Assembly (NCBI GenBank): GCA_035453905.1
Contig: DAOTDZ010000014.1
Coordinates: 150,452 to 214,451 of the forward strand
Direction: 5' to 3'
DNA length: 64,000 bases
Source: Myxococcota bacterium
Lineage (GTDB): Bacteria > Myxococcota > B64-G9
In this document: positions 5,001 through 64,000 of the stretch, piece after piece
Position numbering within the stretch: position 1 is the first letter of the stretch
How the letters are laid out: each line of letters starts with the position of its first letter
Notes under the pieces: generated by a model
Seen by the model: the letters and a program-made list of their open reading frames with translations, nothing else
The model's database searches: none
Told to the model about the DNA's origin: nothing
Position numbers and translations under genes: made by a program

Positions 5001-5127
5001 CCTGCCTCCAACTAGACACCGGCCACTCGCAACCAGCCACTGGCTTCTCGCCACCTCCTTCCTTTCCTTCACCCCGGGGAGGTACAATCGCGCAAGGCCT
5101 GACCCGGCACGCTCAGGAGGGATTCCG

Positions 5128-8958: not shown

Positions 8959-9122
8959 GGGCCACCAGACACTCGCGACTCGTCACCCCCTTCGGGGGCT
9001 GCTCCGCTTCGCTCGAGGACTCGCTCGCTCCGCGGCTCGCCACCCGCCACCTCCTTCTTTCCTTCCTCCCGTGGAGGTACAATCGCGGAAGGCCTGGCCC
9101 GGCGCTCTCAGGAGGGACTCCG

Positions 9123-11846: not shown

Positions 11847-12512
11847 GTGAGGGCTACAGTCTTGGCTCTTGTGATTCTTCTGGCCACGGGCTGTGCCGAG
11901 CAGGTTGCGGGCGTCGATGGTGGCACAAATGGAAACGGCTACTGTTCTTATCGGCTTGCCATCGATGAACTGCTACTATTTTCGGACTATGTAGCTCTTG
12001 GCAGACCGGTAGAAGCAAGGAAAGTGCTTTTCGAGGCGTTAGCTACTGCAGTTATCCCGCCTGAGGACTTCTTTTTTTGCACTATCTTCAGTGTGGCAAC
12101 CATTGACACGCTCAACGTGGCTGTAAGACAAGACGACAATGAAGAGGCAACACCGCCTTGGGGCGATGAATTGGCGACCTACCATGATGAATGCATGCGA
12201 ATTGCAGAATTTGAAAGAGGAACACAAAATCTACTTGCATATCCGACCGCACTCTTTTTTGCGCAGAACAACATATACCTGAATCGGCCATATCTTATTG
12301 AGATGCTGGAGGTCGTGGACTCGAAGGTAAAAGTTGGACCCTCGAATACCAGATGCGGTGTAGCGCTGGAAATCGAGGTGACTGAGCTGTTCGATGCCGT
12401 TGCGGTGGGCGACTTTTCTGCGCTGTTGGAGGCCGATACGTATCCTTGTCGGCAGAATGATGGTGCGGCCATTGATGACCCTGACGGCTCCGATGGATCC
12501 GAAGGGAAGTAG
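11847..12512 (+). CDS. Hypothetical lipoprotein, low-GC (foreign composition)
   Basis: GTG start with GGAGGAGG 8 nt upstream. MRATVLALVILLATGC has a lipobox. GC is clearly lower than the flanking DNA. Confidence 0.6.
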   Translation: MRATVLALVILLATGCAEQVAGVDGGTNGNGYCSYRLAIDELLLFSDYVALGRPVEARKVLFEALATAVIPPEDFFFCTIFSVATIDTLNVAVRQDDNEEATPPWGDELATYHDECMRIAEFERGTQNLLAYPTALFFAQNNIYLNRPYLIEMLEVVDSKVKVGPSNTRCGVALEIEVTELFDAVAVGDFSALLEADTYPCRQNDGAAIDDPDGSDGSEGK

Positions 12513-12613
12513 AGAGACATCCCCCGCCGAAAGGACCCCCGCAGGCAGGTGCCAGCCACACTAGATGGGCATCCGGGAATCGGGGCTGAATGACGAGATT
12601 GGAGTTCGAGGTC

Positions 12614-13528
12614 ATGAAATCGATCATCCATGCTGGGTGGTATGCGGCGCTTGCGATACCCTTGCTGATGGTTGGCGCAGAATCCTGTACTGGAGGAGCA
12701 GGTCAAGGGCGCTACTCTGGCGGCATGGGAGGGGCGAAGATCGTGGGGAGAGGATTGGAGTTCGATTGCCCTGAGTATCAATATGGCGACTGGGAGAACC
12801 CCCAGAAATTCTATCTATTTCCGAGAATCATAAAGAGTGGCGAGAGAGTAAAAATCTATCTGGCAGTGGAAGATGATGTGTTGATTAGAGAAAAGAATGC
12901 GAATGGAGAAGCAGAATTTTCTGTAGAAGTACTGCATGAGAAGGCATCACTCACCAGGGTGGGCTTTGCTGATGACCTGGGCAGCTTGGCGGGAACCATG
13001 TATTGGGCCCCGGTATTTCTGGGAACGGTTGATGTGGAGACCGATGTGCAGGGGTGGGTGGATGTGAACTATTTCAATGGGAAACAGGTGATAGGTACCA
13101 GGAGCATTCTGGTGACAGATGGCACCAAGGAGGAGTCTTCCTGGACATCAAAGGTGGTCTGTCGACTCGATTGTGGAAAATCTGTGCAGTTGGACCACGT
13201 CCTTGTCTACGTCGACCGCACCCCTGTCGAGTATTTCACCAAGATCGTGGCAGCCACGGGTGGCACCCTCGGCAGGATAGTATCTGTTGGATTCGGACAA
13301 GAGCCGTATGGGAATTGCTATCCTAGTTGCTATTTTCCATACCAGGGCGTTGCGTTGGACATCATTTTGCCTGAAGCGGGATTTCACACCGCCTGTGGAG
13401 CGCTAGATTCAGTGGAGAAGTTGGGAATTCCTGGAGTGAAGGTCGCAATGCCTACTAAAGAATTCGGCACTGTCGATTTGAACCCGCAATGCAGAACGAT
13501 GGAGTTTCCCGTTGGCGACTGCCACTAG
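12614..13528 (+). CDS. Hypothetical secreted protein, low-GC
   Basis: ATG with GGAG upstream. N-terminal hydrophobic signal segment (MKSIIHAGWYAALAIPLLMVGA). Low GC and AT-rich codons. Confidence 0.55.
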   Translation: MKSIIHAGWYAALAIPLLMVGAESCTGGAGQGRYSGGMGGAKIVGRGLEFDCPEYQYGDWENPQKFYLFPRIIKSGERVKIYLAVEDDVLIREKNANGEAEFSVEVLHEKASLTRVGFADDLGSLAGTMYWAPVFLGTVDVETDVQGWVDVNYFNGKQVIGTRSILVTDGTKEESSWTSKVVCRLDCGKSVQLDHVLVYVDRTPVEYFTKIVAATGGTLGRIVSVGFGQEPYGNCYPSCYFPYQGVALDIILPEAGFHTACGALDSVEKLGIPGVKVAMPTKEFGTVDLNPQCRTMEFPVGDCH

Positions 13529-13573
13529 TGGGCTGAGGAGAGAGGGCTGGCGCGGGGCGGCGGAGCAGGCAGC

Positions 13574-13918
13574 TCAGTGCAGGCGCGCGGGTGGCTCCTC
13601 CGCCTTGACCGCGTTCAGGTCCGCCTTGAGCTCGGAGATGTCGGCCTTGACGATGACCATGTCCGCCTTGAGGCCCGCCACGTCGGTCTTCAGCACGGAC
13701 ACGTCGGTCTTCAGCACGGACACGTCCTGCTTGAGGACCCGCACGTCGCCTGCCAGGTCGAGCACCGCGACCTCGAGCCGATCGAAGCGCGCGTCCTGCT
13801 GGTCGAAGCGCCTGTCGTGCCGGGCGAGGTGCTCGCCGTTCATCTGCACGCCTTCGGCCACGGCCTGGATGGAGGACTGGATGTTCTCCAGGAGAATGGC
13901 GACCTGATCCTGTTCCAT
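13574..13918 (-). CDS. Small coiled-coil repeat protein (DUF1640 / XhlA-like heptad repeats DVxVLKxD)
   Basis: Start MEQDQVAIL has GGAGG upstream. Repeats DVRVLKQDVSVLKTDVSVLKTDVAGLKADMVIVKADISELKAD. The DNA contains a perfect 21-bp tandem duplication. Confidence 0.5.
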   Translation of the reverse strand: MEQDQVAILLENIQSSIQAVAEGVQMNGEHLARHDRRFDQQDARFDRLEVAVLDLAGDVRVLKQDVSVLKTDVSVLKTDVAGLKADMVIVKADISELKADLNAVKAEEPPARLH

Positions 13919-14207
13919 GGCGCCTCCAGGGTAGCGGGCCTCGCGGGTGGAATCAACCCTCGCGTGCCCTCCCACGGACGGCGTTCCCGAGCAAGAACAA
14001 TGCTACGATGCTGGATCCACGAATCCGGGGGGTTACGTTGCCAGGCGGCCCTCGGCGCTGCGCGGGTGACCGGATTTCCCGGACACCGTGACCGGAAATC
14101 GGACACACGCGCCAGGTGCCAGCCACCCGGAGCCCGGCGAAGGCCTCTTCTTCCCGGCGTCATGCGGAAGATCCGGTCCCTTCCTGAGGTGCCACCCACC
14201 TGCAGCC

Positions 14208-14256
14208 GGGGCGTTGGCAGGCCGTCCGTGCGTGGATCGCCCAGGGCATTTCATGG
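14208..14256 (+). repeat. REP-like intergenic element, family 1 copy (diverged)
   Basis: GGCGTTGGCAGGCCGTCCGTGCGTGGATCGCCCAGGGCATTTCAT. Confidence 0.5.
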
Positions 14257-14391
14257 AGGCGAAGGACAGGCGGGAAGGGCAGGGGGCGAGGTGCCAGGCA
14301 GGTTCCAGCCCCCCTCCGGCCGGAACTTCAGGCCTCCGTGGTCCCGTCGCGCCACGCGCCGTCTCGTTTCATGGCGGATAACAATCACGAG

Positions 14392-15006
14392 CTAGTCAAT
14401 GAAAAAGCACATTCTGCGCCCTCCCTGGACTGGGATGCAGGGAAGGCCGTAGGTCGCGTTTCCTGGATACTTGCAATCATCGCAGTCTGATTGGTCTTCG
14501 CAAAGGTGCGAACAGAATGCTTGTGGGTTTTGTGGGTCACCATCGCAAAAAAGACCTTCTCCACAGGCTGACTGCTGTTGGTCAGTACAGGGTGTGCCAC
14601 AGGTGCCTTCTCGTGAACCACATTCTGCCCCGAGAGCTATCTTCTCGCAGAACGACGGTTCACCAAGTTGGCTGACGCAGCACATAGGACTTCCGTCATC
14701 TAGTATGTCCAAGCAGTCAGAATCGGCATCACATGGAATGGTACAAAGACCCATGGAGGGCCCAAAGAGGCCATACTTGCAGAATTGTGATTCACAGTCT
14801 TCGTTTTTGGCGCATAAGTCGCCAATACCCGCAGCGTTTCCATCGTTGCCGTCTTGACCATCCATCCCAGAATCAGGAGGCGATTCCAGATCGCTGCATC
14901 CAAGGAACAGCCATTGAATGGCAACTATTGAGACAAGCAGAGAGACTCTTCGAACTACAATATAGGGTTCGAGGAAGGTCGATCTGCTGAGACTCTTGAA
15001 CCCCAT
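14392..15006 (-). CDS. Cys-rich secreted lipoprotein, low-GC
   Basis: MGFKSLSRSTFLEPYIVVRRVSLLVSIVAIQWLFLGC has a lipobox. Many CxxxxC pairs. Low GC. Confidence 0.55.
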   Translation of the reverse strand: MGFKSLSRSTFLEPYIVVRRVSLLVSIVAIQWLFLGCSDLESPPDSGMDGQDGNDGNAAGIGDLCAKNEDCESQFCKYGLFGPSMGLCTIPCDADSDCLDILDDGSPMCCVSQLGEPSFCEKIALGAECGSREGTCGTPCTDQQQSACGEGLFCDGDPQNPQAFCSHLCEDQSDCDDCKYPGNATYGLPCIPVQGGRRMCFFID

Positions 15007-15067
15007 GGCTACCTCGCCCACGCGCCAGGTGCCAGCCACCCGGAGCCGGGCTCCTCGAGGCTCGCGC

Positions 15068-15697
15068 CTAGCGCGGCTTCCGGCGCAGCAGCCCCAGCCC
15101 GATCACCAGCCCCAGCACCAGCCCGCCGCCCTGGCCCGCGGTGGAGTCGGAGCAGTCCTCCGTGTCGTCGCAGGTGTGCCAGTAGCCCGCCTCGATGGTG
15201 TGAAAATGGCAGGACTGGTCGAGCGCCTGCGCGAGGACGAACTCCACCGGGGCGGAGTAGAGGTCGCAATCCACCTCCGTCCCGTCCACCCTGAAGCTCG
15301 CCAGGAGGCAACCGTCACTCTTGCTGATCACGAAGACCCCGCGCTCGCCCACGGCCAGGGGAGTGCAGCGGTTGCACCCGGATTCGCACGGCGTCCCTGC
15401 ACCCCAGGAGAACTCCACCGGGAAGTCCACGGCCGGGCACTCGAGCCCGCCATCGCAGTAGATCGGCGTCTGGAGGAGGCTGATGCTCAGCCCGTCCGTC
15501 TGGACCGCCGTCACCTCGGCCTGGGCCACCATGGAATTCTCCTGCCATTCGAAGCAGCAGGGCGCGCCGGGGCACATCGCGGCCGCGCTGGAGGGAAGGA
15601 CGACCAGCAGCAGCGCGGACAGGAGCCCGGCCAGCGCGACACCCTCGGCCGCGCGCGCCGCGCGGCAGACCCCTCGAGGAAATCCCTTCTCCCGCAT
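15068..15697 (-). CDS. Secreted Cys-containing protein with C-terminal MYXO-CTERM-type sorting tail (…DCSDSTAGQGGGLVLGLVIGLGLLRRKPR)
   Basis: Start MREKGF has GGAGG with an 8-nt spacer. Signal peptide. C-terminal Cys, Gly-rich stretch, TM helix, then RRK, as in the MYXO-CTERM domain. Confidence 0.6.
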   Translation of the reverse strand: MREKGFPRGVCRAARAAEGVALAGLLSALLLVVLPSSAAAMCPGAPCCFEWQENSMVAQAEVTAVQTDGLSISLLQTPIYCDGGLECPAVDFPVEFSWGAGTPCESGCNRCTPLAVGERGVFVISKSDGCLLASFRVDGTEVDCDLYSAPVEFVLAQALDQSCHFHTIEAGYWHTCDDTEDCSDSTAGQGGGLVLGLVIGLGLLRRKPR

Positions 15698-15925
15698 GTC
15701 CCCGACCTCCGTGAAGATGATTCCCGACCAGGGGAGGCTACCAGATAGAACGCCTGAAACCAAGGGGCGCGCCCGACCCGCAGGCGCCAGCCGTCGCGGG
15801 GGCGGACCCATGCGTCCGCCCCTGTGGGACTCCGGACCGATTCTCTGTAGGGGCAGACCCAACTTTCTGCCCCGGCGGCTGCACCAGCAGGCAGGGTTTC
15901 GGGAGGGCGCAGGGCACAGTCACGG

Positions 15926-16288
15926 TCAGGGCGTCCGCGGGCCCAGCACGTGGGGGAGCTGACGGTAGGTGATCGGGTCGAGCAGCAGGAGCGCGCGGAA
16001 GACCCGCCGGTGCGGCTCGGGCGATGCGGGGTGTGGCTCCAGGAAGAGCGCGGCGAGGAGATCGCGCCAGCGCAGCAGCTCGCGCCGCAGGCCGGGCCGC
16101 GGCTGGACCTCCACGGTGAGATCGGTGAGCGCGAGCGCGCGCTCGTAGCACGCGCGGAGCCGCTCGCCGCCGTCCTGGGCCAGGGCCCGCGAGGCCCGGT
16201 GGAGCTCGTTGCCGATCATCAGCAGCTGCTCGCCGAGACTGAACTCGGCCCAGCGCGCGGGCGACAGGCCTGCGTGCTGTCCCGCCAT
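15926..16288 (-). CDS. Hypothetical protein, translationally coupled to the upstream gene (ATG overlaps its TGA)
   Basis: MAGQHAGLSPARWAEFSLGEQLLMIGNELHRA... The N-terminal part of track ORF 15926..16798 is an Arg-rich artifact. The ATGA overlap fixes the start at 16288. Confidence 0.5.
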   Translation of the reverse strand: MAGQHAGLSPARWAEFSLGEQLLMIGNELHRASRALAQDGGERLRACYERALALTDLTVEVQPRPGLRRELLRWRDLLAALFLEPHPASPEPHRRVFRALLLLDPITYRQLPHVLGPRTP

Positions 16289-20300: not shown

Positions 20301-21458
20301 CCGGACTGGCGCGCCGAGGCCACCTTCCTGCGGGTGCTGGAGCGGGGCGTGCGCACCGAGGGTGACGTGGCCGTGGTGCTGCACGCCTTCGACGGGCAGC
20401 CCGAGGTGCAGCAGTACCTGGCCCGGCTCATCCTGCGCCGGGCGGCCGAGCCGCGCCTGGTGGCGGCCGTCGAGCGGGTGCTGTTCAAGGACCGCATCCA
20501 GTGGACCAGCGTGGATCTGGAGCTGGCCGGCCTGAAGGACGCCGGGGCCCGCATCGAGCGGCTGCGCCAGGTGCTGGCGCGCTCGCCCGACGATCCGGAC
20601 GGCGTCCTGCGGCTGGTGCACCTGCTGGTGGAGGCGAACCAGGTCCAGGAGGCGCTCATCCTGGGCCGGCGGCTGCGCGACACGGGTCTCGCCACCCCGT
20701 TCCTGTCCCGGGAGCTGGGCGACGTGCTGGCCCGCAACCAGATGTCGGATGAGGCCGTGCGCACCTACTCGGAGATCGTGGAGTTCGCGCCCGACAGCCA
20801 GCCCTCGCGGAAGCTCCTGGGCGACATCTACCTGGCGCACGGCTGGTTCGATCCGGCCTACCGGCAGTTCCGCGCGCTGACCGAGCTGGCGCCCGAGGAG
20901 CCCCAGTTCCAGCTCCGGCTGGCCGGCGCGGCGGCCGGGGCGGGCCGGGTGGACGAGGCGCTGCGCATCGAGCGCCAGGTGGCCCGGGCCACCGGCCGGC
21001 CGGGGCCCGCGGACCCGCGCCTGTGGGCCCGGCTGTGGTCGGCCGCCCGCCTCGCGCGCATGCTGCACGAGCCGCCGGCGGTGCCCGGCCTGGATCCGGC
21101 CCGCGTGCGCGAGGGGCTCAAGTCGAAGCTCAAGGAGCTGCAGCTCTTCCGCGGGGCGGGCACCCTGGTGGTGCTTTCCTGGGAGGACCTGACCGCGGAT
21201 CTGGCGTTGCTGACCTTGCGCGGGGACACGGCCGCCGCGTTCGGCGAGGCCACCGACGCGGCCCCGGTGGGGCTGTCCGCGGTGCTGCTGTCGCCGGCCG
21301 ACCTCGAGCAGGCCTCCCTGCGGGCGCAGCTCAGGAGCACCGTCTCCCGCAACCCCATCGCGCTCCGGCGCCAGGACATCACTTGGGACGGCAAGGAGTT
21401 CCAAGTGAAGGTGACCTCGCTGACCCTGCCCCCGGGCGGCTCCCGGCTCGACCTGTGA
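17364..21458 (+). CDS. Large secreted multidomain protein: FecR-like N-terminus, VIT domain, von Willebrand A domain, C-terminal TPR repeats
   Basis: GAGGGAGGG 6 nt upstream of the ATG. Signal peptide. VIT-like block (FFNPGERAVEGWYWFAVPEDAVVTGFAVETDG...YDRAVATGHEPAILEW...IFPVPAVGTRRVVLRYLQ). vWA MIDAS-like (VVVDTSAG). TPR-like C-terminus. Confidence 0.8.
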   Translation: MHTGSQGKGFFRGSRGALRGALLLALAGTLALPLLAANCGEPVRSQPLQARLELAAGEVSVEQGGQTALAQSGHALLADAGVRTGQGARALVRLSNGAAIFLRGDTRLRLAAGAVSLEAGEVWVDAPESERDAPVQKVGEVTVYGVDAGLDIRRTDAGGAVVYVARGVATISAPGGRVELRAGEQAVVEGAAAPAVTPVAFWDDWTGGMADNRVAGGLSGAGAGRVYGVDLSDRSGAPARPLEISRQAIRAVIRDGLAETEVDQTFFNPGERAVEGWYWFAVPEDAVVTGFAVETDGVLVDGEFIERRAASAGYDRAVATGHEPAILEWVDSRTFRARIFPVPAVGTRRVVLRYLQMLPVVAGTFRYLYPLQSPEPVRIGEFSLGVDLGPAGKDMSLTTLADALVEDGGSRVVMRRSGYVPRADFLLEATLDQSPEAARAWRFSPGGEAADYVMVRYTPDFEWKPGAAGKAAVVVVVDTSAGADEASRSLKVTAAESILRALAVDDRFALVALDVSPVVLHPAEGLAAATDQEIATALERLSEHAAGGATDLGAMFDVTLPLLHGAEQPAVIYVGDGQATSGETGGEALVARLRRALATSRARLFTVGVGPQASQALLGSLADHGGGQVFQIDEPEAASERALSLVAALKTPTLTDFEIDLGAALDEVFVSAQGKVRQGEEVRVLARTHHRLPGSLKVKGRVNGEAFSREYGIQEESGPLSSFVPKLWAADYLRRVLGSVADPDEQRGRVLQLGVEYGLLTPFTSILALESEAAYQQQGIPRLRSPLRGVRLSALLEREDGRLAALQRLSNSVGFGCALESPQESMPAAQLAPAPVEQQKMAGHRAMRDFAESEARAPAPAPAAPSLAAEGYGGAPGGALGGLSGGDVALAKPGPAPVAKAEPAREEARGGELDDGRGGIGSLGRPPRGRPAPELLTCSDAAARPLRERVILWRKRLRSAADGYGLVAQYQAVRAACEIPDWRAEATFLRVLERGVRTEGDVAVVLHAFDGQPEVQQYLARLILRRAAEPRLVAAVERVLFKDRIQWTSVDLELAGLKDAGARIERLRQVLARSPDDPDGVLRLVHLLVEANQVQEALILGRRLRDTGLATPFLSRELGDVLARNQMSDEAVRTYSEIVEFAPDSQPSRKLLGDIYLAHGWFDPAYRQFRALTELAPEEPQFQLRLAGAAAGAGRVDEALRIERQVARATGRPGPADPRLWARLWSAARLARMLHEPPAVPGLDPARVREGLKSKLKELQLFRGAGTLVVLSWEDLTADLALLTLRGDTAAAFGEATDAAPVGLSAVLLSPADLEQASLRAQLRSTVSRNPIALRRQDITWDGKEFQVKVTSLTLPPGGSRLDL

Positions 21459-21567
21459 GCCCGGCCCACCCCCCTGGCCGCCCTCCCCGGGGGAGGGTGG
21501 GCGCTCCGCCCCGTTTCTGCTAGAATCCTCTCGACTCTCCGGTGGACCCGGACCCTTGGAGGTGACC

Positions 21568-24500
21568 ATGTCCCTGCGCAGGAACGCAGACCGGTCGGCG
21601 CGCTTCCGTCCCCTGGCCCTGGCGCTGCTGTGCGCGGCGTTCGCCCTGGGCAGCCTCGGCTGCAGCGACTCGGGCGGGCTGCCCGAGTGCATGAACGGGC
21701 TGGACTGCGACGACGGCGATCCATGCAACCTCGATCGCTGCGATCCCGTCGAGGGTTGCGTGCACCGCCCCGGTTCGCCGGAGGAGGTCTGCGACGACCA
21801 GGACGCCTGCACCACGGACACCTGCGACCCGGTCACGGGCTGCGCCCACGCGGACACCTCGGCCGCCTGCGACGACGGCAACCCGTGCACGGCCGACTCC
21901 TGCGACCCGGCCGCGGGCTGCCTGAGCGACGGCACGGATCTGGCCGGGCCGTGCGACGACGGCAACCCCTGCACCGCCGGGGACGCCTGCCAGGGCGACC
22001 GGGCCGGCACCTGCCGGGGGCACGAGTTCGTGGACGCGGACTGCGACGACGGCAACCCGTGCACCCGGGACCTGTGCGACCTCGAGCTCGGCTGCCGGCA
22101 CGACGGCACGGGCGAGCGCGGGCCGTGCGACGACCTCAGCGTGTGCACCACCGACGACGTGTGCCAGGGCGACGCGGCCGGCACCTGCCGGGGCACGGAC
22201 CTCGGCCTGGAGCGCTGCGACGACGGCGACCCCTGCACCGCGGACACCTGCGACCCGCTGCTGGACTGCCAGCACGCGAGCGAGGGGGTGACCGCGGCCT
22301 GCGACGACGGCGATCCCTGCACCAGCATGGACGCCTGCCAGGGCGATGCGGACGGCACCTGCCTGGGGACCGTGCCCACGAGCTGCGACGACGCCAACAC
22401 CTGCACCCTGGACAGCTGCGACCCGGTCGCGGGCTGCGTGCACGACGGCACCGGCGTGGTGGACGGCTGCGACGACAAGAACGTGTGCACCAGCGGCGAC
22501 GTGTGCCACGGCGACGCGGCCGGCACCTGCGCCGGCGTGTTCCAGCCGAGCTCGGCCTGCGACGACTCCAACGTGTGCACGGTCGACACCTGCGATCCGG
22601 TCCAGGGCTGCGTGCACGACGGCACGGACATCTCGCGCGCCTGCAGCGACGGGGACCCCTGCACGACCGGCGAGCTGTGCCAGGGCGACGCCGCGGGCAC
22701 CTGCGGCGGCGGCGGCCCCACCGACTGCGCCGATCTCAACCCGTGCACCGCGGACGCCTGCGACCCGGCCGTGGGCTGCGTGCACGACGGCGCCGGCATC
22801 CTGACGGCCTGCGACGACCTGAGCCTTTGCACCCAGGACGACGCCTGCCAGGGCGACGCGGCCGGCACCTGCAGCGGCGCGCCGGTCTCCTGCGACGACG
22901 GGAACGCCTGCACCGAGGACATCTGCGAGCCGCTGGAGGGCTGCCGCAGCGATCTGATGGCCAACAAGGACTGCGTGCCCAACATCGAGGTGGACTACCC
23001 GCCGCGCGGCGCGACCCTCCAGGGCGCGCTCGGCGACCCGGTGGTGACCACCACCGGCCACGTGTGGAGCGGGGCGGGGCCGATCACCTCCTTCCGCATC
23101 AACGGCGCGGACGTGGCGGTGGCGGCGGACGGCAGCTTCAGCCAGCCGGTGCAGGCCATGACCGGCGGCAACACCCTGGTGTACGAGGCCGAGGACGCCC
23201 TCGGCACCTACCGCAAGCGCGTGCAGGCCTTCCTGTGGTCCGACCGCTACCTGAAGCCCGACATCCTGATCCTCAAGAGCGGCATGGTGGACCCGGGCAT
23301 GGGCATCTGGCTCAGCCAGGAGATCCTGGACGACGGCGACCACAGCCTGCCCCCGGACGATCTGGCCACCATCTTCGAGCTGGTGCTGGCGGACCTGGAC
23401 ATCGGCTCGTTCATCGATCCGTCCACCCCCATCGCCAGCGAGGCCGGCTTCGACATCTACGTCACCGGGCTGACCTACGCCTCCGCCACCGCCAACCTGA
23501 CGGCCATCAACGGAGGCATGCGCATCGACGCCGCGCTCAACACCATCCACGGCGATCTCTACTTCGACTGCACCGAGTGGTACTGCGAGCTGGCCGGCGG
23601 CGACGGCGGCGGCGACATCGCCATCGACTCGATCACCATCAGCGCCGACGTGCTGCTGTCCGTGGCCGCGGACCACACCCTGGTGGTGACCGTGGCGAAC
23701 CCGGTCACCTCCATCAACAACCTGGACGTGAGCGCGGACGACGGCTGGACGAACTTCCTGCTCAGCATCGTGGAGACCTTCATCCGCGACTCCCTGGTGG
23801 CCGATCTCGAGGCCGAGCTGAACAGCCAGCTCACCGGGCAGCTCGCGCCCATGCTGCAGGACGCGCTCTCGGCGCTGGCCTTCAACGAGTCGTTCGACCT
23901 GCCCCGGCTGGACGGCTCGGGCGAGGTGATCTCGGTGAACCTGGTGACCGACTTCTCCTACACCAGCTTCCACCCGGGCGGCGGGGCCATCGGGTTGCGG
24001 GCCGTGGGCTACACGGTCGACGCGGTGCCCTACGACAACCTGGGCGTGCCGGGCCGGGCCGGCTGCGGCTCGGGCGTCCAGACCCTGGTGGTCCCGGGCG
24101 CCTTCCCCTTCGAGTTGTCGCTCGCGGACGACACGCTCAACTCCCTGTTCTTCGCCGCCTGGAACGGCGGGCTGATGGAGTTCCCGGTGCCGCCCGAGCT
24201 GCTGGGCGACATCGACTTCGCCCAGTACGGCATCACCAACATGAGCATGTCGCTCTCGGCCATGCTGGCGCCGACCGCCACCGACTGCTGGCCGGACGGG
24301 CAGCTGCGCATCTTCATCGGCGACCTCAGCCTGCGGGCCTCGTTCCAGTTCGCCGGCCTGCCGGTCGACCTGGTGCTGTGGGCCACGGCCACCATGGGCC
24401 TGCAGGTGACCGCCGAGAACGGCGAGATCGCCATCGCCATCACCCAGATCGACGCAATCGAGACCCAGCTCGAGGTGCAGCAGGACAGCCTGATCGGGCT

Positions 24501-24711
24501 CATCGACCTCATCGGCGACGGGCTCGAGGTGCTGCTGACCGACACGCTCATGGAGATGCTGGGGGGCGGCGCGCTGGCCACCATCCCGCTGCCGGAGATC
24601 GATCTCAGCGCGGCGCTGCCCACGCTGCCGCCGGGCACGGTCATCGCGCTCGATCCGCAGCAGGTCACCCGGCAGGGTGGCAACACCATCATCAGCGGCG
24701 ATCTGCGCTAG
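21568..24711 (+). CDS. Cys-rich repeat secreted/lipoprotein. About 13 tandem repeats of about 40 aa (CDDGNPCTxDxCDPxxGCxH...), then a roughly 570-aa non-Cys domain.
   Basis: ATG with GGAGG and a 5-nt spacer; the track M at 21556 is TTG. Signal peptide ALALLCAAFALGSLGC. Repeats are evident. Confidence 0.8.
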   Translation: MSLRRNADRSARFRPLALALLCAAFALGSLGCSDSGGLPECMNGLDCDDGDPCNLDRCDPVEGCVHRPGSPEEVCDDQDACTTDTCDPVTGCAHADTSAACDDGNPCTADSCDPAAGCLSDGTDLAGPCDDGNPCTAGDACQGDRAGTCRGHEFVDADCDDGNPCTRDLCDLELGCRHDGTGERGPCDDLSVCTTDDVCQGDAAGTCRGTDLGLERCDDGDPCTADTCDPLLDCQHASEGVTAACDDGDPCTSMDACQGDADGTCLGTVPTSCDDANTCTLDSCDPVAGCVHDGTGVVDGCDDKNVCTSGDVCHGDAAGTCAGVFQPSSACDDSNVCTVDTCDPVQGCVHDGTDISRACSDGDPCTTGELCQGDAAGTCGGGGPTDCADLNPCTADACDPAVGCVHDGAGILTACDDLSLCTQDDACQGDAAGTCSGAPVSCDDGNACTEDICEPLEGCRSDLMANKDCVPNIEVDYPPRGATLQGALGDPVVTTTGHVWSGAGPITSFRINGADVAVAADGSFSQPVQAMTGGNTLVYEAEDALGTYRKRVQAFLWSDRYLKPDILILKSGMVDPGMGIWLSQEILDDGDHSLPPDDLATIFELVLADLDIGSFIDPSTPIASEAGFDIYVTGLTYASATANLTAINGGMRIDAALNTIHGDLYFDCTEWYCELAGGDGGGDIAIDSITISADVLLSVAADHTLVVTVANPVTSINNLDVSADDGWTNFLLSIVETFIRDSLVADLEAELNSQLTGQLAPMLQDALSALAFNESFDLPRLDGSGEVISVNLVTDFSYTSFHPGGGAIGLRAVGYTVDAVPYDNLGVPGRAGCGSGVQTLVVPGAFPFELSLADDTLNSLFFAAWNGGLMEFPVPPELLGDIDFAQYGITNMSMSLSAMLAPTATDCWPDGQLRIFIGDLSLRASFQFAGLPVDLVLWATATMGLQVTAENGEIAIAITQIDAIETQLEVQQDSLIGLIDLIGDGLEVLLTDTLMEMLGGGALATIPLPEIDLSAALPTLPPGTVIALDPQQVTRQGGNTIISGDLR

Positions 24712-28009: not shown

Positions 28010-28053
28010 AGCGCCAGAGGCGGCGGGCATCCAGCCCGCCGGGGAGGAGGGCC

Positions 28054-29586
28054 ATGCTCGCCAGGGTGTTTTCCGGTGCCATTCTCGGGGTGGATGCCTT
28101 CCAGGTCGAGGTCGAGGTGGACATGGCCCGGGGGCTGCCCAACTTCGCCACGGTCGGGCTGGCCGAAGGGGCGGTGCGGGAGAGCCGGGTGCGGGTCGAG
28201 TCGGCCCTCAAGAACTCCGGCCTGGAGTTCCCCCAGAAGAGGATCACGGTGAACCTCGCCCCGGCCGACGTGCGCAAGTCCGGCTCGGCCTTCGATCTGC
28301 CCATCGCCCTCGGGCTGGTGGCCGCGGGGGAGGGCATCCCGGACGAGCGCCTGGCCCGCACCCTGGTGCTCGGCGAGCTGGGGCTGGCCGGAGAGGTCCG
28401 GCGGGTGCCCGGGGCCCTGGCCATGGCGCTGCTGGCCCAGCAGCAGGCGCTGGAGGAGGTGATCTGCCCGGTCGAGTGCGCCGCGGAGGCGGCCGTGGTG
28501 GAGAGCCTGCGGGTGATCCCGGTGCGCACCTTCCGGGAGGTGGTCGACCACCTGACCGGCGCGCTGCCCCTGCAGCCCTGCCCGCCGCCGGCTGCGCCCC
28601 TCCAGGGCGGGGGGCTCATGCCGCTGGACTTCTGCCACGTGCGTGGGCAGGCGAGCGCCAAGCGCGCCCTCGAGGTGGCGGCCGCGGGGGGCCACAACCT
28701 CCTGATGGTGGGCCCGCCCGGCTCGGGCAAGACCATGCTGGCCAGGCGGCTGCCGACCATCCTGCCGCCGATGACCTTCGCCGAGTCGGTCGAGGTGAGC
28801 AAGATCCACTCCATCGCCGGGCTGCTGCGCGCGGGCGCCGGCCTGCTCGCGGCCCGCCCGTTCCGGGCTCCCCACCACACGGTCTCGGACGCCGGCCTGG
28901 TGGGCGGGGGGGGGATCCCCAGGCCCGGGGAGGTCACCCTCGCGCACCGGGGGGTGCTGTTCCTCGACGAACTGCCCGAGTTCCGGAAACACGTGCTCGA
29001 GGTGCTCCGCCAGCCCCTCGAGGATCACCTGGTGACCATCGCCCGGGCCCAGACCACCATCACCTTCCCGGCCAGCTTCATGCTGGTGGCGGCCATGAAC
29101 CCGTGCCCGTGCGGGAACCTGGGCGATCCGCGGCACGCCTGCACCTGCTCCTCTGGCGCCATCCTGCGCTACCGGGAGCGCCTGTCCGGGCCGCTCCTGG
29201 ACCGGATCGACATCCAGGTGGAGGTCCCGGCCGTGGCCTGCGGCGAGCTGGTGAAGGCCGGGCCGTGCGAGGGCTCGGAGGAGATCCGCGCGCGGGTTTT
29301 ACGGGCGCGCGAGCGGCAGCGCGGCCGGTTCGAGCCCACCGCCGCCTCGGCCTGCAACGCGCACCTCGGCCCGGCCCAGGTGGAGCGCTGCTGCAAGCTG
29401 GGCGCGCCCGAGCAGGCCCTGCTGGAGATGGCCGTGCGCCGGCTGGGCTTCTCGGCCCGCGGCTTCGACCGCATCCTGAAGGTCGCCCGCACCGCGGCCG
29501 ATCTCGAGGGCGCCCCGGACATCCGGGCCGAGCACCTGGCCGAGGCCATCCAGTACCGCTCCCTGGACCGCCCGATTCAAGCCTAG
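28054..29586 (+). CDS. comM: YifB/ComM-family AAA+ ATPase (Mg-chelatase subunit ChlI-like)
   Basis: Lon-like N-terminal domain, Walker A GPPGSGKT, FLDELPEF, C-terminal Mg-chelatase C domain. Confidence 0.9.
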   Translation: MLARVFSGAILGVDAFQVEVEVDMARGLPNFATVGLAEGAVRESRVRVESALKNSGLEFPQKRITVNLAPADVRKSGSAFDLPIALGLVAAGEGIPDERLARTLVLGELGLAGEVRRVPGALAMALLAQQQALEEVICPVECAAEAAVVESLRVIPVRTFREVVDHLTGALPLQPCPPPAAPLQGGGLMPLDFCHVRGQASAKRALEVAAAGGHNLLMVGPPGSGKTMLARRLPTILPPMTFAESVEVSKIHSIAGLLRAGAGLLAARPFRAPHHTVSDAGLVGGGGIPRPGEVTLAHRGVLFLDELPEFRKHVLEVLRQPLEDHLVTIARAQTTITFPASFMLVAAMNPCPCGNLGDPRHACTCSSGAILRYRERLSGPLLDRIDIQVEVPAVACGELVKAGPCEGSEEIRARVLRARERQRGRFEPTAASACNAHLGPAQVERCCKLGAPEQALLEMAVRRLGFSARGFDRILKVARTAADLEGAPDIRAEHLAEAIQYRSLDRPIQA

Positions 29587-59889: not shown

Positions 59890-62800
59890 TCAGCTGCAGT
59901 AGCCGTACTCCCAGGTGTTGTAGTATTCCCAGCAGCCGTACACGTACGAGTAGCACTCCGTGCCGCAGACGTACTGGCCGGAGCTCGTGTCGCACTCGCA
60001 GATCTGGTCGTAGTCGCAGTCCGCCAGGCCAGCGGGGCACTGGCACACCCCGCCCACGCAGATCTGGTTGTAGGAGCACAGCGGGCTGCCGGTGCAGCCG
60101 CCCACGGAGCAGTGGTCGCTTATCGTGCAGGCGTCGCCGTCGTCGCAGGGGGAGGCGTTGGGGGGGTTGGCGCAGCCGCCGCCGGCCGGCCAGCACTCGT
60201 CGTCGGTGCAGGGGTTGCCGTCGTCGCAGCTCAGCTTCGAGCCGCTCTGGCAGCAGGCCTCGCCCGCGGCGCCGTTGCAGGTGTCGCCCGCGGTGCAGGC
60301 GTCGCCGTCGGAGCAGGCGGCGGTGCTGGGCACGTAGCTGCAGCCCGAGCCGTCGTTGCAGTAGTCGTCCGAGCAGGGGTTGCCGTCGTCGCAGCTCGCG
60401 AGCAGGGCGCCGCCGCTGCAGGAGGTGCCCTGGCAGGTCTGCGCGTACCAGGCCAGACCGCTGCAGTAGGTCGAGCCGCACGGGAGGCCGTCGCCCGCCG
60501 CCGGGTAGCTGCAGCCGGCGCCCCCGTCGCAGCTGTCCGCGGTGCAGGGGTTGGGGTCGCCGCAGACCTGGATGATCTCGCTCCCGCCGCACTGCCCGCT
60601 CTGGCAGGTCTGGCGGCGCCACTCCAGCCCGCTGCAGGAGCGCGCTCCGCACTCCATCCCGTCGCTCACCGGGGGATGGACACAGCCTGAGCCCGGGTCG
60701 CACACGTCGCTGGTGCAGGGGTTCCAGTCCTCGCAGTCCGGCGCCACGCCGGCGACGCAGCTCGGGCTCTCGCACCGCTCCGGCCCGTTGCAGGCGTTGC
60801 CGTCGTCGCATTGCCAGTCCGAGGTGCAGGACTGGCAGACGGTGTCCGCACCATCGACGGCCCCGTCGCAGTCGTTGTCCAGCCCGTCCGCGCAGGTGGC
60901 CGAGCCCAGCGGTCCCTCGGTCGCTCCCGGGTGGATGGTGTTGTTCTGGTCATCGCAGTCCTGGCCGCAGGGCGGCGGGGCGTGGCCGTCGGAGTCGGCG
61001 TCGATGGCCTGGCCGGCGCAGGTCCCGCCGGCGCAGGCGTCGCCGCTGGTGCAGGCGTCGAGGTCGTCGCACGGCGCCGTGTTGTGGCTGTGCGTGCAGC
61101 CGTTCGCGTCGCAGCCGTCGTCGGTGCAGGGATCGCCGTCGTCGCAGGCGCTCGCATCCGGGCTGAAGACGCAGCCCGCGCCCTGGTCGCAGGTGTCGAG
61201 GGTGCAGGGGTCGCCGTCGTCGCAGGTCCGCGGCGTGCCCTGGCAGCTCGCGCCGACGCAGGTGTCGCCCTCGGTGCAGGCGTTGCCGTCGTCGCAGCCC
61301 CCGCCGGTGGAGACGTGGGAGCAGCCCTGCTGGGGATCGCAGAGATCGTCGGTGCAGGGGTTGCCGTCGTCGCAGCGCTCCAGGCACGAGCGGCAGGCCT
61401 GCGGGGAGCCCAGCGCGGTTTCGCAGCCCGGGCTGGCGTCGCAGTCGCCCTAGCCGGGCTCGCAGGCGCAGGCGCTGAGCTGGCAGGTCGCGCGCGAGCC
61501 GCAGACCCGCTCGCAGGAGCCGCAGTGCTGCGGGTCGTTGCTCAGATCGACGCAGGCGGTGCCGCAGCAGAAGCTGGCCTGGGTCCCGGGGCAGTCCGGC
61601 CCCGTGCCGCCGCAGGCGCAGGTCGCTCCGGTGCAGAGCTCGCCGCTGTCGCAGGTGGTGCCGTTGCAGGCCTGGCCGTTGCAGAGGCCGCCCTCGCAGC
61701 CGTAGGGGCAGTCCTCGGGGACCTCCGTGTACTGGCAGACGCCGTCCGCGCACTGGCCGGGGACCTCGAAGCGGACGCGCGCGTCGCCGCGGCACTCGGC
61801 CGGCGGCGGCTGGTCGCAGCCCTGGAGCTGTCCGTGGCACTCCTCGGCCTGGCAGACATCGCCCTGGGTGCAGGCGTCCCCGTCCGTGCAATCCTGGCCC
61901 CCGGGCGCCCAGGCGGGCTGCAGCGCGGCCGGATCGAACAGGCAGCGGAAGGTGCCCCAGGCGCACTGACGCGCCTGGCACTGGAGGGCCTCGGTGCAGA
62001 TTTCACGCGGGCAGCACAGGCCATCCTCGCAGCGCTGCCAGTCCGCGCACTCCACACCCACGCAGAGCCTGGGCGCGCACACCCCCCCGGCGCACACCTC
62101 GCCCGCGCCGCAGGGCGTCGCCCCGCAGGCCAGCGGGTAGCAGGCGCCGGCCGCGCACTCCTCGCCCGAGGCGCAGGTCACCTGGGCGCACGAACGCGGG
62201 ACGCAGGCGCCCTCGAAACAGACCTCGAGGCCTTCGACGCAGTCCAGCTCCGGGCAGTCCGCCTCCAGGCACCAGCCGTTGGCGCATTCGAGGGCGCCGC
62301 AGTCGACCTGGCCGCAGCTGCGCTGGACGCAGGCGCCGTCCACGCAGATCTCGTCGTGGCCGCTGCAGAGCTCCTCGGTGCACTCGCTCGGGTAGCAGCG
62401 ACCGCCGCTGCAGACCTGGCCGGTCGGGCAGACCACCTCAGCGCACGAGCGATCGCGGCACTCGTCCTCGATGCACACCTCGCCGTAGCCGGCGCACAGC
62501 CTGGTGGGGCAGTCCCTGGGGTAGCACCTGCCCGCGGCGCAGACCTGGCCGGTCGGGCACTGGACCGCGAGGCAGGAGGCCGGGGTGCAATCCTCCTGCA
62601 CGCACACCTCGCCCAGCCCGGGGCAGTTGCGCCAGTCGCAGGCCGACGGGTAGCAGTGCCCGTTGGCGCAGCCCTCGCCCGGGGGGCACTCCACCCACAG
62701 GCAGGCCACCTCCTGGCAGGTCTCTCCGAGGCAGACGTGGCCGGGCGGGCAGCTCCGATCCGTGCAGCTCGTGGGCAGGCACTCGCCCCGGACCACGATC

Positions 62801-62895
62801 CCGTCCGGGCAGCTCCCGATCTCGCCGGAGTCGCAGCCGGCCGGACCCAGCACCAGGGACAGGCACGCGACCGCGAGCATGACGCGCAGTGCCAT
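59890..62895 (-). CDS. Very large Cys-rich lipoprotein (about 1000 codons) in a single open frame except for one in-frame TAG at 61450..61452. Contains CDDGNPCT repeats, a MopE-like DNDCDG motif and a C-terminal Tyr/Cys-rich tail.
   Basis: Start MALRVMLAVACLSLVLGPAGC has AGGAG with a 7-nt spacer and a lipobox. Track ORFs 61450..62916 and 59890..60747 are in the same frame. Manual translation of 60748..61449 is fully open, Cys-rich and has no start-like codon. Confidence 0.6.
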
Positions 62896-63017
62896 CGCTC
62901 CGCTCCTCGTCTGCATGACGACGGGGTCATTCTAGCCCAGATCGGCGGAATCCGCGATGCGAGGGCAGGAGCCAGGCCCGGAGCCAGGCCCGGCGGCGGT
63001 CCCGGGCGAACCGCGCC

Positions 63018-64000
63018 TCAGTAGTAGCAGGTGATGTAGCCGCTGCAGCCCGGGTAGTAGTACTCGTCGTAGCAGCAGTAGTAGTAGTTCGTGTCGCACT
63101 CGCAGATCTGGTCGTAGTCGCAGTCCTCGAGGCCGGCCGGGCACTGGCACACCCCGCCCACGCAGATCTGGTTGTAGGAGCACAGCGGGCTGCCGGTGCA
63201 GTTGCCCCCGGAGCAGTAGTCGCCGGTGGTGCAAGGGTCGCCGTCGTCGCACGGACCGGGCTTGGCGGGGTAGGCGCAGCCGGTGGCCGGGTAGCAGTCG
63301 TCGTAGGTGCAGATGTTCCCGTCGTTGCAGGGCGGCGTCACGTTGGGGTCGAACTGCGGGTGGCAGCAGGCCTCGCCCTGGGCGCCATTGCAGTAGTCGT
63401 TGGCCCCGGTGCAGGCGTCGCCGTCGGAACAGGGGTTGGTGTTGGGCACGTAGCTGCAGCCCGAGCCGCCGTTGCAGTAGTCGGTGGAGCACACGTTGGC
63501 GTCGTTGCAGTTCTGGATGAGCGCGCTCGACGAGCAGGCGCCCGACGTGCAGGTCTGGCGGCGCCACTCCAGGCCGCTGCAGTAGCGCGAGCCGCACTCG
63601 GTGCCGTTGGCGACGTTCGCGTTCGTGCAGCCGCTGGCGGCCGCGCAGGAGTCGTTGGTGCACTGCTGGCTGTCGTTACAGTTCTGGATGAGCGCGCTCG
63701 ACGAGCAGGCGCCCGACGTGCAGGTCTGGCGGCGCCACTCCAGGCCGCTGCAGTAGCGCGAGCCGCACTCGGTGCCGTTGGCGACGTTCGCGTTCGTGCA
63801 GCCGCTGGCGGCCGCGCAGGAGTCGCTGGTGCACTCGATGCCGTCGTTGCAGTTCTGCAGCCCCATGTCGCCGGAGCAGGTGCCGCTCTGGCAGGTGTGG
63901 GCGTACCACGCCAGGCCGATGCAGTAGCGCGCGCCGCACTCGGTACCGTTGGCGACGTTCGCGTTCGTGCAGCCGCTGGCGGCCGCGCAGGAGTCGTTGG
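63018..64000 (-). CDS. Cys-rich secreted protein, paralog of the 59890 gene's C-terminal region. Partial: the 5' end lies beyond the window. Contains 168-bp near-identical tandem repeats.
   Basis: Frame open to the window edge. Shared C-terminal block SPLCSYNQICVGGVCQCPAGL(A/E)DCDYDQICECDT and a Y/C-rich tail. Confidence 0.7.
   Translation of the reverse strand, partial: NDSCAAASGCTNANVANGTECGARYCIGLAWYAHTCQSGTCSGDMGLQNCNDGIECTSDSCAAASGCTNANVANGTECGSRYCSGLEWRRQTCTSGACSSSALIQNCNDSQQCTNDSCAAASGCTNANVANGTECGSRYCSGLEWRRQTCTSGACSSSALIQNCNDANVCSTDYCNGGSGCSYVPNTNPCSDGDACTGANDYCNGAQGEACCHPQFDPNVTPPCNDGNICTYDDCYPATGCAYPAKPGPCDDGDPCTTGDYCSGGNCTGSPLCSYNQICVGGVCQCPAGLEDCDYDQICECDTNYYYCCYDEYYYPGCSGYITCYY
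63508..63843 (-). repeat. Two near-identical 168-bp tandem repeat units inside a Cys-rich coding region (a third diverged unit continues to the window edge)
   Basis: The unit starting gttgcagttctggatgagcgcgctcgacgagcaggcgcccgacgtgcaggtctggcggcgcc... recurs with a 168-bp period. Confidence 0.7.

Follow-up and report, generated by a model that had tools for sequence, protein, structure and literature searches.

A TAG codon within a conserved protein motif of a Myxococcota gene: probably a young nonsense substitution in one of two tandem paralogues

Introduction

Near one end of a 64,000-nt stretch of DNA from a Myxococcota bacterium (hereafter the window), two Cys-rich open reading frames are separated by one TAG codon with a glycine codon on either side. 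Another gene of the window is also interrupted by a Gly-flanked TAG, and a first-pass annotation had offered this shared context as a pointer to programmed read-through, a mutational hotspot or a systematic base-calling artefact. Here, we ask whether the TAG is an error, a decoding signal or a lesion.

Layout of the interrupted gene

Translation of the minus strand from 62916 to 59887 gave a single internal stop, the TAG at 61450..61452, surrounded by the residues ...CACEPG*GDCDASPGCE... (Table 1). Together with collinear homology across the stop, this retranslation bears out the earlier view that the two frames form one gene, which a single TAG divides. The gene is 3,027 nt long, and its product is a Cys-rich repeat secreted protein or a probable lipoprotein. 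The true start is likely the ATG at 62895, which has GAGGAG ahead of it and at which public gene calls for the upstream part also begin (481 aa).

Table 1. Positions of the features discussed in the text, in coordinates of the window.
Feature	Position	Strand	Remarks
Whole interrupted gene	59890..62916	-	1008 sense codons, internal TAG and terminal TGA (59890..59892)
Upstream ORF	61453..62916	-	488 aa from first ATG, 481 aa from ATG 62895
N-terminal signal peptide, lipobox-like LGPAGC (Cys28)	62833..62916	-	Read from the translation
Conserved disulfide-module motif C-A-C-E-P-G-*-G-D-C-D-A-S-P-G-C-E	61420..61470	-	TAG at aromatic position
In-frame amber codon TAG (codon 489)	61450..61452	-	Context GGC TAG GGC
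Downstream part, 519 codons and TGA	59890..61449	-	Intact; without start codon for 234 codons
Tandem paralogue, 3' part, runs off the window	63018..64000	-	Full gene intact, encodes P0001/P0121, 1586 aa
Other TAG-interrupted gene, ORFan	10969..11706	+	GGAGG, ATG 10969, 23-codon lipoprotein signal peptide, TAG 11038..11040, 221 codons

The standard-code product is the upstream ORF, which comprises a signal peptide ending in LGPAGC, ~12 Cys-rich repeats of ~22 aa and an MXAN_6577-like module of which only the first half is present. The label 'lipoprotein' given in the first-pass annotation is supported only in part. A signal peptide is present, but LGPAGC, checked against the lipobox [LVI][ASTVI][GAS]C, has a non-canonical Pro at -3; the paralogue P0001 has a canonical LGLGSC. 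A lipoprotein is thus what we infer from the sequence.

The downstream part contains Dicty_CTDC repeats, a MopE-like DxDxDG...DNDCDG stretch, ECGxRxCxGLEWRRQTC units and a Tyr-rich tail. We regard it as real coding sequence, because the Dicty_CTDC model (PF00526) matched it in six stretches with 107 bits against a Pfam gathering threshold of 27. As had been argued before, it is not an independent gene: no ATG, GTG or TTG occurs in the 234 codons 61449..60748, the first being GTG at 60747. At the gene's own start-codon frequency (26/1009), the chance of such a run is ~0.002. The downstream part also lacks a signal peptide.

Public gene calls place a 285-aa or 255-aa ORF downstream of the TAG, which might suggest two separate products, namely a 488-aa protein with a genuine stop and a second protein obtained by reinitiation at GTG 60747. 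Some homologues, such as P0023 (555 aa), likewise end shortly after the equivalent module. However, this would leave 234 homologous codons between the TAG and GTG 60747 untranslated, and the reinitiation product would begin in the middle of a repeat and lack a signal peptide, despite being of a disulfide-rich extracytoplasmic type. Moreover, the TAG interrupts a conserved module instead of marking the edge of a domain. Two separate products are therefore highly improbable.

A conserved protein motif at the stop

A search gave 505 homologues at E <= 1e-10. The module at the stop has the consensus C-x-C-x-x-G-[WFY]-G-[DN]-C...GCE, in which the TAG takes the [WFY] position. This position was aromatic in 117 of the 122 motif instances from homologues (W 82, F 21, Y 14), with a similar set of residues in the strict form of the motif (W 10, Y 7, F 6), while 41 and 68 of these instances had G at the two neighbouring positions. 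The tandem paralogue P0001, which lies immediately upstream at a distance of 100 nt, is 78% identical to the interrupted gene. Residues 224-559 of the latter align with residues 220-555 of P0001 at 61% identity in a block that spans the TAG, and the paralogue codons at the aligned site are GGC TTC GGC GAC TGC (CGCQPGFGDC). Because G-[WFY]-G-[DN]-C is conserved in the homologues and the paralogue has GGC TTC GGC, we take the flanking Gly codons to come from the protein motif and to carry no signal. The gene thus shows a sense codon at this position in its homologues, in-frame homology downstream and a downstream part that is not a gene in its own right, as is typical of a nonsense-interrupted gene.

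When W was put in for the stop, the match to NF041328 (MXAN_6577-like cysteine-rich protein) covered profile positions 23-114 (37.2 bits), as compared with 23-65 (31.9 bits) for the interrupted sequence. All matches to this model (24.7 to 37.2 bits) fell far below the NCBIfam cut-off of 100 bits, and the likeness is confined to one module. The gene resembles the secreted Cys-rich repeat proteins found among Myxococcota and other former Deltaproteobacteria (PF00526, NF041328) in its CDDGNxCTxDxC repeats, which score above the Pfam threshold, in the C-x-C-x-x-G-W-G-D-C...GCE module and in its N-terminal signal or lipobox. It differs from them in the low NF041328 score (37 vs 100 bits), in N-terminal ~22-aa Cys repeats without a Pfam model, and in being interrupted.

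No orthologue closer than the paralogue was found in a collection of 5.8 billion proteins, among the GTDB species representatives or in JGI metagenomes. Besides identical clone copies (L020), the search for an orthologue with a sense codon gave at most 56% identity in genome contigs and at most 50% in metagenome contigs, and an uninformative motif search in the 79 distant metagenome loci gave 0 instances. Because a close orthologue with a sense codon was not found, we infer the ancestral codon from the paralogues only.

The second interrupted gene and the shared context

The other TAG (11038..11040) is real as well and lies 50 kb away. It follows the lipobox Cys of MPAIRGALAMGLALSLLSFSGCG by two codons, and the ORF that runs to 11706 is in the same frame. 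Both amber sites are indeed Gly-flanked as noted earlier, here as GGT TAG GGT, and they have nothing in common besides these Gly codons. A homologue search with this gene, an ORFan, returned only the gene itself.

G-x-G positions make up 13/1009 of the gene 59890..62916 and ~2/245 (by eye) of the gene 10969..11706. The naive joint chance of Gly-TAG-Gly at both genes is ~1e-4, for a pattern that was picked post hoc. As a DNA word, GGYTAGGGY was seen twice in the window, where 1.48 occurrences would be expected, and two or more turned up in 44 of 100 shuffles. The word is thus not enriched.

The interruptions in the window numbered two. The GC3-based screen for in-frame stops mostly returned antisense frames, and GC1/GC2 filters were added. 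A TAG at 7894..7896 between two coding ORFs was also considered as an interruption, and was rejected in favour of two normal genes on account of an 87-nt spacer with a GC hairpin and GAGGG before ATG 7984.

The shared context could also arise if both stops were real nonsense mutations at a hotspot specific to the G-runs of GGY-TGG-GGY. With a Trp ancestor, a G-to-A change at the first G of a TGGGG run would account for either site, and W is more frequent than any other residue at the motif position. Yet, the paralogue has TTC and not TGG, the ancestral codon of 11038..11040 is beyond recovery in an ORFan, a sample of two sites has no statistical power, and none of the known methylation or deamination motifs suits both. 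We consider such a hotspot very unlikely. Dcm-type CCAGG deamination was rejected as well; it fits only 61450..61452 and needs a Gln ancestor, which is contradicted by the motif.

Reproducibility of the TAG

Contigs from at least four JGI samples (3300025706, 3300010429, 3300009838 and 3300009771) and one ENA assembly (ERZ27257455) carry the whole gene, TAG included, without a single base difference. The TAG is identical in the contigs L001-L005 and L020, and the contig names stem from several assembly pipelines (JGI Ga..., ENA k141_). At TAG 11038..11040, 16 contigs agree, among them one of ~5x coverage and the Logan assemblies of three separate SRR runs. The clone, which comes from digester or sludge samples, is present in assemblies of the runs SRR4244739, SRR5007150 and SRR18360463.

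A sequencing or assembly artefact, through a systematic miscall beside GGC or collapse of the paralogues over a true sense codon, might be suspected in a G+C-rich region with a 78%-identical paralogue 100 nt away, all the more as all data apparently come from short-read metagenomes. Against this stands the agreement of the assemblies at both sites, and the paralogue's TTC mixed with any sense codon cannot yield TAG. An artefact is extremely unlikely, and we judge TAG 61450..61452 to be real and not an assembly error because the identical gene was recovered in at least five assemblies.

The first-pass annotation had stated that the recurring context argues against two random errors. Random sequencing error is indeed unlikely, given the identity across assemblies, but the inference from context is unsupported since the Gly residues belong to the motif. 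The systematic base-calling artefact that it suggested is very unlikely too, as several assembly pipelines and many sequencing runs agree. Strain polymorphism was zero among the copies, and no strain-based selection test is possible because all of them are identical.

TAG as a terminator in the window

Nine of the 27 confident genes in the window end in TAG, and seven of these nine ordinary terminators carry G at +4. They include CGG TAG GGG of 7984..8958 and GGG TAG GTC, and some follow a Gly codon. A ComM/YifB-like gene ends at a TAG 8 residues past the end of its Mg_chelatase_C domain. Judged by these gene ends, TAG is a genuine terminator and the genome uses the standard code.

Both interruptions found in the window are TAG, and none is TGA or TAA. 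This is as expected from codon usage, since ~70% of the one-step nonsense changes at present codon usage lead to TAG. Alternatively, a dedicated tRNA, either for pyrrolysine or acting as a natural amber suppressor, might recode TAG, or the code might be partially reassigned in this lineage. The exclusive use of TAG would agree with this, and bacteria that use pyrrolysine also keep TAG as a terminator. As in pyrrolysine decoding, the bacterium belongs to an anaerobic-type community and has an in-frame UAG within coding sequence. However, the nine TAG-terminated genes have family-consistent ends and the TAG bias needs no recoding. The affected genes are not methylamine methyltransferases, and the position is a conserved Trp/Phe/Tyr that requires an aromatic residue. 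The search for suppressor tRNAs, proposed in the first-pass annotation, found no tRNA in the window and its flanks (L001, L012; ~78 kb), and no pyl genes were seen in the sequence examined here. Recoding is exceedingly improbable.

State of the downstream part

The 519 codons downstream of the TAG contain no second stop and no frameshift. Of the conserved Cys columns that paralogue and outgroup have in common, 55 of 55 are kept downstream of the TAG. A relative-rate test with P0005 as outgroup gave symmetric numbers of unique substitutions (31 vs 34), with no rate acceleration downstream. This test was preferred to one with P0002 (81 vs 27 unique changes downstream, 11 vs 26 upstream), which was set aside because P0002 is a mosaic, its N-terminus being like the interrupted copy and its further part like the paralogue. 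The dN/dS between the paralogues, 0.58 upstream and 1.02 downstream, was rejected as evidence because synonymous sites are constrained (GC3 ~0.96), the C-terminal repeats misalign and most of the divergence is older than the mutation. The undecayed state of the downstream part would fit a young lesion and maintained read-through equally well.

Amber read-through might have been selected as a function. A leaky Gly-UAG-Gly would then produce a short form of 488 aa and a long form of 1008 aa, and the gene 10969..11706 would behave likewise. This would account for two TAG-interrupted secreted-protein genes in 64 kb with Gly codons on both sides, and for a downstream region that is fully intact down to its conserved Cys; read-through is the sole way to make that region useful, as it lacks a start for 234 codons and a signal peptide. 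A near-cognate insertion of Tyr or Trp would restore the motif. In addition, G-rich upstream sequence and a G at +4 increase read-through in E. coli reporters (PMC11126739).

In contrast, the closest relative, the tandem paralogue, does not share the TAG but has TTC. The site had no Rfam match, and no unusual RNA fold that might act as a stimulatory structure was found 3' of the TAG (z = +0.63). Ordinary terminators likewise carry G at +4, sometimes after a Gly codon too, the two sites share only Gly codons, and the Gly context is fully accounted for by the protein motif. In a clonal population with zero polymorphism, the intact downstream part is uninformative on selection. Selected read-through is therefore unlikely. 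The shared context, earlier seen as a pointer to read-through or a hotspot, loses its force with the Gly residues explained by the motif, the DNA word at chance frequency and the +4 G shared with terminators.

Programmed read-through is exemplified by the A1 protein of phage Q-beta, at UGA. The two cases are alike in having a long homologous frame past the stop that is expressible only by read-through. They differ in that the stop studied here is absent from the nearest relative, showed no stimulatory element and stands in the context of ordinary terminators. It is quite improbable that this lineage tolerates or exploits inefficient termination at Gly-UAG-Gly, with two secreted lipoprotein genes expressed as short and long isoforms after insertion of Tyr, Trp or Gln in place of the conserved aromatic residue. 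If true, it would represent functional UAG read-through on a bacterial chromosome without a dedicated tRNA. The locus has a bearing on bacterial translational recoding only if read-through is shown experimentally.

A young nonsense substitution

We conclude that TAG 61450..61452 is probably a real, population-fixed and young nonsense substitution in one of two tandem paralogues, and not a decoding signal. The likeliest change would be TGG (Trp) to TAG by a G-to-A transition, or alternatively TAC (Tyr) to TAG, and the struck codon would have encoded the conserved aromatic residue of the G-[WFY]-G-[DN]-C...GCE disulfide module. Translation would then halt at codon 488, resulting in a shortened N-terminal protein that breaks off within its last module. 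With neither a start codon nor a signal peptide of their own, the 519 downstream codons would be an orphaned remainder, and their lack of decay suggests that the lesion is young. The downstream part could be made only through occasional near-cognate misreading of UAG, perhaps as trace read-through; such misreading takes place at low level in nonsense pseudogenes of enterobacteria. Possibly, the loss is tolerated thanks to the intact paralogue immediately upstream.

This interpretation is in line with the nonsense pseudogenes of Salmonella, which mostly carry UAG, arise from C-to-T or G-to-A transitions and are weakly translated (PMC9122581). Like the 'pseudo-pseudogenes' of Salmonella Typhi and Paratyphi A (PMC9122581), the gene studied here has a single in-frame UAG in an otherwise intact frame, with a probable origin by transition, a sense codon in homologues and possible low-level near-cognate read-through. 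Unlike in Salmonella, the place of an intact sister-strain orthologue is taken by a tandem paralogue of 78% identity, and the host is an uncultured high-G+C Myxococcota bacterium.

The significance of the locus lies mainly in its annotation. In public pipelines it appears as two or three separate 'hypothetical proteins' (481 aa and, downstream, 285 or 255 aa), while the proper record would be one nonsense-interrupted paralogue of the intact 1586-aa neighbour. More generally, most nonsense mutations in very G+C-rich genomes are expected to be amber, and what looks like a 'recurring context' of a stop may be no more than a conserved protein motif.

As a minor observation, the peptide spanning TAG 61450..61452 would read ...SACACEPG[Y/W/Q]GDCDASPGCETALGSPQACR if the stop were decoded.

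An amber codon within a single reading frame

Translation of 62916..59890 confirmed the suggestion of the first-pass annotation that two neighbouring ORFs form one frame split by a single TAG (...TGC GCC TGC GAG CCC GGC TAG GGC GAC TGC..., CACEPG*GDC). The downstream part lacks a signal peptide and, as that annotation had also claimed, a start codon of its own: the 234 codons 3' of the TAG are free of ATG, GTG and TTG, the earliest being GTG 60747. The chance of such a run is ~0.002 from the gene's own frequency of start-type codons (26/1009), which supports the view that this stretch never needed its own start. That the downstream 519 codons are truly coding is shown by a match to Dicty_CTDC (PF00526; 107 bits, cut-off 27).

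Coordinates of the two amber sites and associated features in the window
Feature	Position	Strand	Description
Interrupted gene	62916..59890	-	single frame, 1008 sense codons, one internal stop
Internal amber TAG	61450..61452	-	sole interruption of the 1008-codon frame
Terminal TGA of interrupted gene	59890..59892	-	end of frame
Tandem paralogue	63018 to beyond 64000	-	directly upstream of interrupted gene
Site-1 TAG	11038..11040	+	GGT TAG GGT, between signal peptide and 221-codon frame

A sequencing or assembly artefact might be suspected behind such a stop, but the evidence leads us to reject it. The 481-aa product ending at the 61450 TAG recurs in contigs of 0.2–0.32 Mb from JGI samples 3300025706, 3300010429 and 3300009838 and from ENA assembly ERZ27257455, and a short contig of JGI sample 3300009771 also spans the site. 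The full 3,027-nt gene occurs without a single difference in each of five loci from other assemblies (L001 to L005); within 11 kb, differences between these assemblies and the window are confined to the paralogue repeats. Likewise, the site-1 TAG is the same in 16 contigs, including Logan assemblies of SRR4244739, SRR5007150 and SRR18360463 and one contig with about 5x coverage. Hence, both stops belong to the genome of a clonal population that has been widely sampled; they are not random errors, a possibility that the first-pass annotation had already thought unlikely. This clonality leaves no polymorphism for testing selection.

The stop lies at a conserved aromatic position

The 61450 TAG lies within a disulfide module, C-x-C-x-x-G-[aromatic]-G-[DN]-C-x(3-8)-G-C-E. 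The read-through protein, i.e., the frame translated across the TAG, has 505 homologues at E <= 1e-10. At the TAG-equivalent position, the 23 instances of the strict motif carry W (10), Y (7) or F (6), and the 122 instances of a relaxed motif (17 proteins) carry W (82), F (21), Y (14), L (3) or another residue (2); in the latter set, the preceding residue is G in 41 and L in 63, and the following one G in 68 and D in 43. Near-exact parallels of the module occur in the homologous protein P0040 ('CVCDDGWADCQGATPGCETELWT...CEDGNPCTTDVCDP') and in the tandem paralogue ('CGCQPGFGDCTLDPGCETTLGS...CEDNNPCTDDSCD'), whose codons at this site are GGC TTC GGC GAC TGC. Residues 224-559 of our copy align with 220-555 of the paralogue product (P0001) at 61% identity, collinear through the stop. 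The match to NCBIfam NF041328 (MXAN_6577-like cysteine-rich protein) covers profile positions 23-65 with 31.9 bits and, once the stop is replaced by W, 23-114 with 37.2 bits; both scores are under the family cut-off of 100 bits. A real amber codon thus occupies the conserved aromatic position of a folded module, which it interrupts, and the Gly codons on either side belong to the motif. The one-step ancestors are TGG (G-to-A transition) and TAC (C-to-G), of which TGG seems preferable because W is commonest at this position.

The recurring Gly-TAG-Gly context

The other Gly-flanked amber site reported in the first-pass annotation is real. At site 1, an ATG at 10969 preceded by GGAGG opens a 23-codon lipoprotein signal peptide, MPAIRGALAMGLALSLLSFSGCG, and the frame 3' of the TAG ends at 11706. 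The recurring context had been put forward as an argument against two random errors, with programmed read-through among the possible causes, but it is not evidence for recoding. The motif fully explains Gly-TAG-Gly at the 61450 site, and GGYTAGGGY is not enriched as a DNA word in the window (2 matches versus 1.48 expected; at least 2 matches in 44 of 100 shuffles).

Nor is TAG special in this genome, where it functions as a terminator. It ends 9 of the 27 confident genes in the window, including a ComM/YifB-type gene (28012..29586) whose TAG lies 8 residues past the end of the Mg_chelatase_C domain. Seven of these nine stops have G at +4 (e.g., CGG TAG GGG and GGG TAG GTC), so neither a +4 G nor a Gly codon in front sets the internal TAGs apart. 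A third apparent in-frame TAG (7894) was rejected as an interruption: it terminates a gene in the usual way, and behind it come a hairpin, an SD-like sequence and then another gene. Under the codon usage of the window (13,026 codons), 70-73% of one-step nonsense substitutions give TAG, since CAG, GAG, TGG, TCG, AAG and TAC are common codons; inside the Cys-rich interrupted gene the figure is 41%. The outcome seen in the window, two interruptions that are both TAG and none that is TGA or TAA, therefore has a probability of about 0.3-0.5.

As regards signals for recoding, ARAGORN found no tRNA in the window, L001 or L012 (the last two from other assemblies); Rfam gave no match at gathering thresholds; and folding of the 123 nt from the 61450 TAG does not exceed that of shuffled sequences (z = +0.63). 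The 123 nt from the site-1 TAG (11038..11160, +) reach -50.3 kcal/mol (z = -3.13; 0 of 200 shuffles as good), with a hairpin, GGGCGCGGCC...GCGCCC, enclosing the internal ATG 11116. This fold has no equivalent at 61450, and no element is common to both sites.

In E. coli reporters, read-through rose with a G-rich sequence upstream and with G at +4 (PMC11126739). This context is present at the 61450 TAG, but in a genome of 72% G+C it is also the normal state. Selection favouring leaky contexts, or true functional read-through, would fit the fact that both genes encode secreted or lipoprotein-type products and that both stops are flanked by Gly. G-x-G makes up ~1% of positions in either protein (13/1009 and, at site 1, about 2/245, counted by eye), which gives a naive joint chance of about 1e-4 for a pattern that was chosen post hoc. 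The motif fully accounts for the 61450 site, and the site-1 gene is an ORFan without comparators. We treat the shared context as coincidence and consider selection for leaky contexts or functional read-through improbable.

A probable recent lesion in a redundant gene

Over its 519 codons, the downstream part carries neither a further stop nor a frameshift. Every Cys column conserved between the paralogue and an outgroup is kept in our copy (50/50 with P0002, 55/55 with P0005, both homologous proteins), and with P0005 as outgroup unique downstream substitutions number 31 in our copy versus 34 in the paralogue. With P0002, the counts are 11 versus 26 upstream and 81 versus 27 downstream; these opposite directions were read as mosaicism of P0002 rather than decay. 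NG86 dN/dS between the paralogues (0.58 upstream, 1.02 downstream) is unreliable because of extreme GC3 and repeat misalignment. The intact downstream part indicates that the lesion is either young or tolerated.

Most likely, an ordinary nonsense mutation recently became fixed in this redundant copy of the tandem pair. Translation would stop at codon 488, leaving a secreted protein or lipoprotein cut short within its last module; the remainder would be an orphaned, young relic, its loss presumably buffered by the intact paralogue. UAG may occasionally be read by near-cognate tRNAs, a possibility on which the E. coli reporters and Salmonella nonsense pseudogenes bear (PMC11126739; PMC9122581), the latter being mostly UAG, arising via C-to-T or G-to-A transitions, with low protein levels (PMC9122581). 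Wider interest is low unless read-through is experimentally demonstrated.

The paralogue and the Cys-rich family

The complete paralogue product (P0001/P0121, 1586 aa) has a cluster member, P0121, deposited as HOX45592.1, 'hypothetical protein [Myxococcota bacterium]' (NCBI TPA MAG). Assemblies differ in copies of a 57-aa unit, 'NCND...ECGxRYCxGLEWRRQTCxSGxC', in this gene (63018..64000, -; L001 10001..14761; L004), giving 1586 versus 1529 aa. The window also mismatches JGI contigs at 63745 and 63748 (SG versus NA), within near-identical repeats. These differences may reflect assembly ambiguity or real repeat polymorphism. The nearest non-self homologue, P0002 (JGI, 650 aa, partial), resembles the interrupted copy in its N-terminal third and the intact paralogue in its CTDC region, which includes a segment absent from our copy. 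This mosaic suggests that recombination or gene conversion took place, or that our copy underwent a deletion.

At least four Cys-rich repeat genes occur in the window, indicating heavy investment of this genome in the family. A further large Dicty_CTDC repeat protein (21424..24711, +; 1095 codons stop-to-stop, terminator TAG) matches PF00526 with 160 bits in 9 stretches. A ~650-nt segment is present twice (5049..5699 and 9045..9694, +; about 93-94% identity), within two different large genes, a 922-aa one (5128..7896) and a Cys-rich 'ECGPDGCGGSCGxC' repeat lipoprotein gene ending at 10676.

The site-1 gene lies at the left edge of a low-G+C island (~12000..16000; 0.557 over 12-14 kb, then 0.643 over 14-16 kb, versus about 0.70-0.75 outside) rich in ORFan and lipoprotein-like genes. 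Several independent short assemblies end close to 10400/10547 and 17100/17160. Finally, a gene of ~720-755 aa (51112..53379, -; also L001 24511..24761) matches MVP_shoulder (PF11978, 106.7 bits, full profile) and Vault_3 (30.3 bits), both of them domains of the major vault protein (MVP) of eukaryotes, so that this Myxococcota genome encodes an MVP-like protein.
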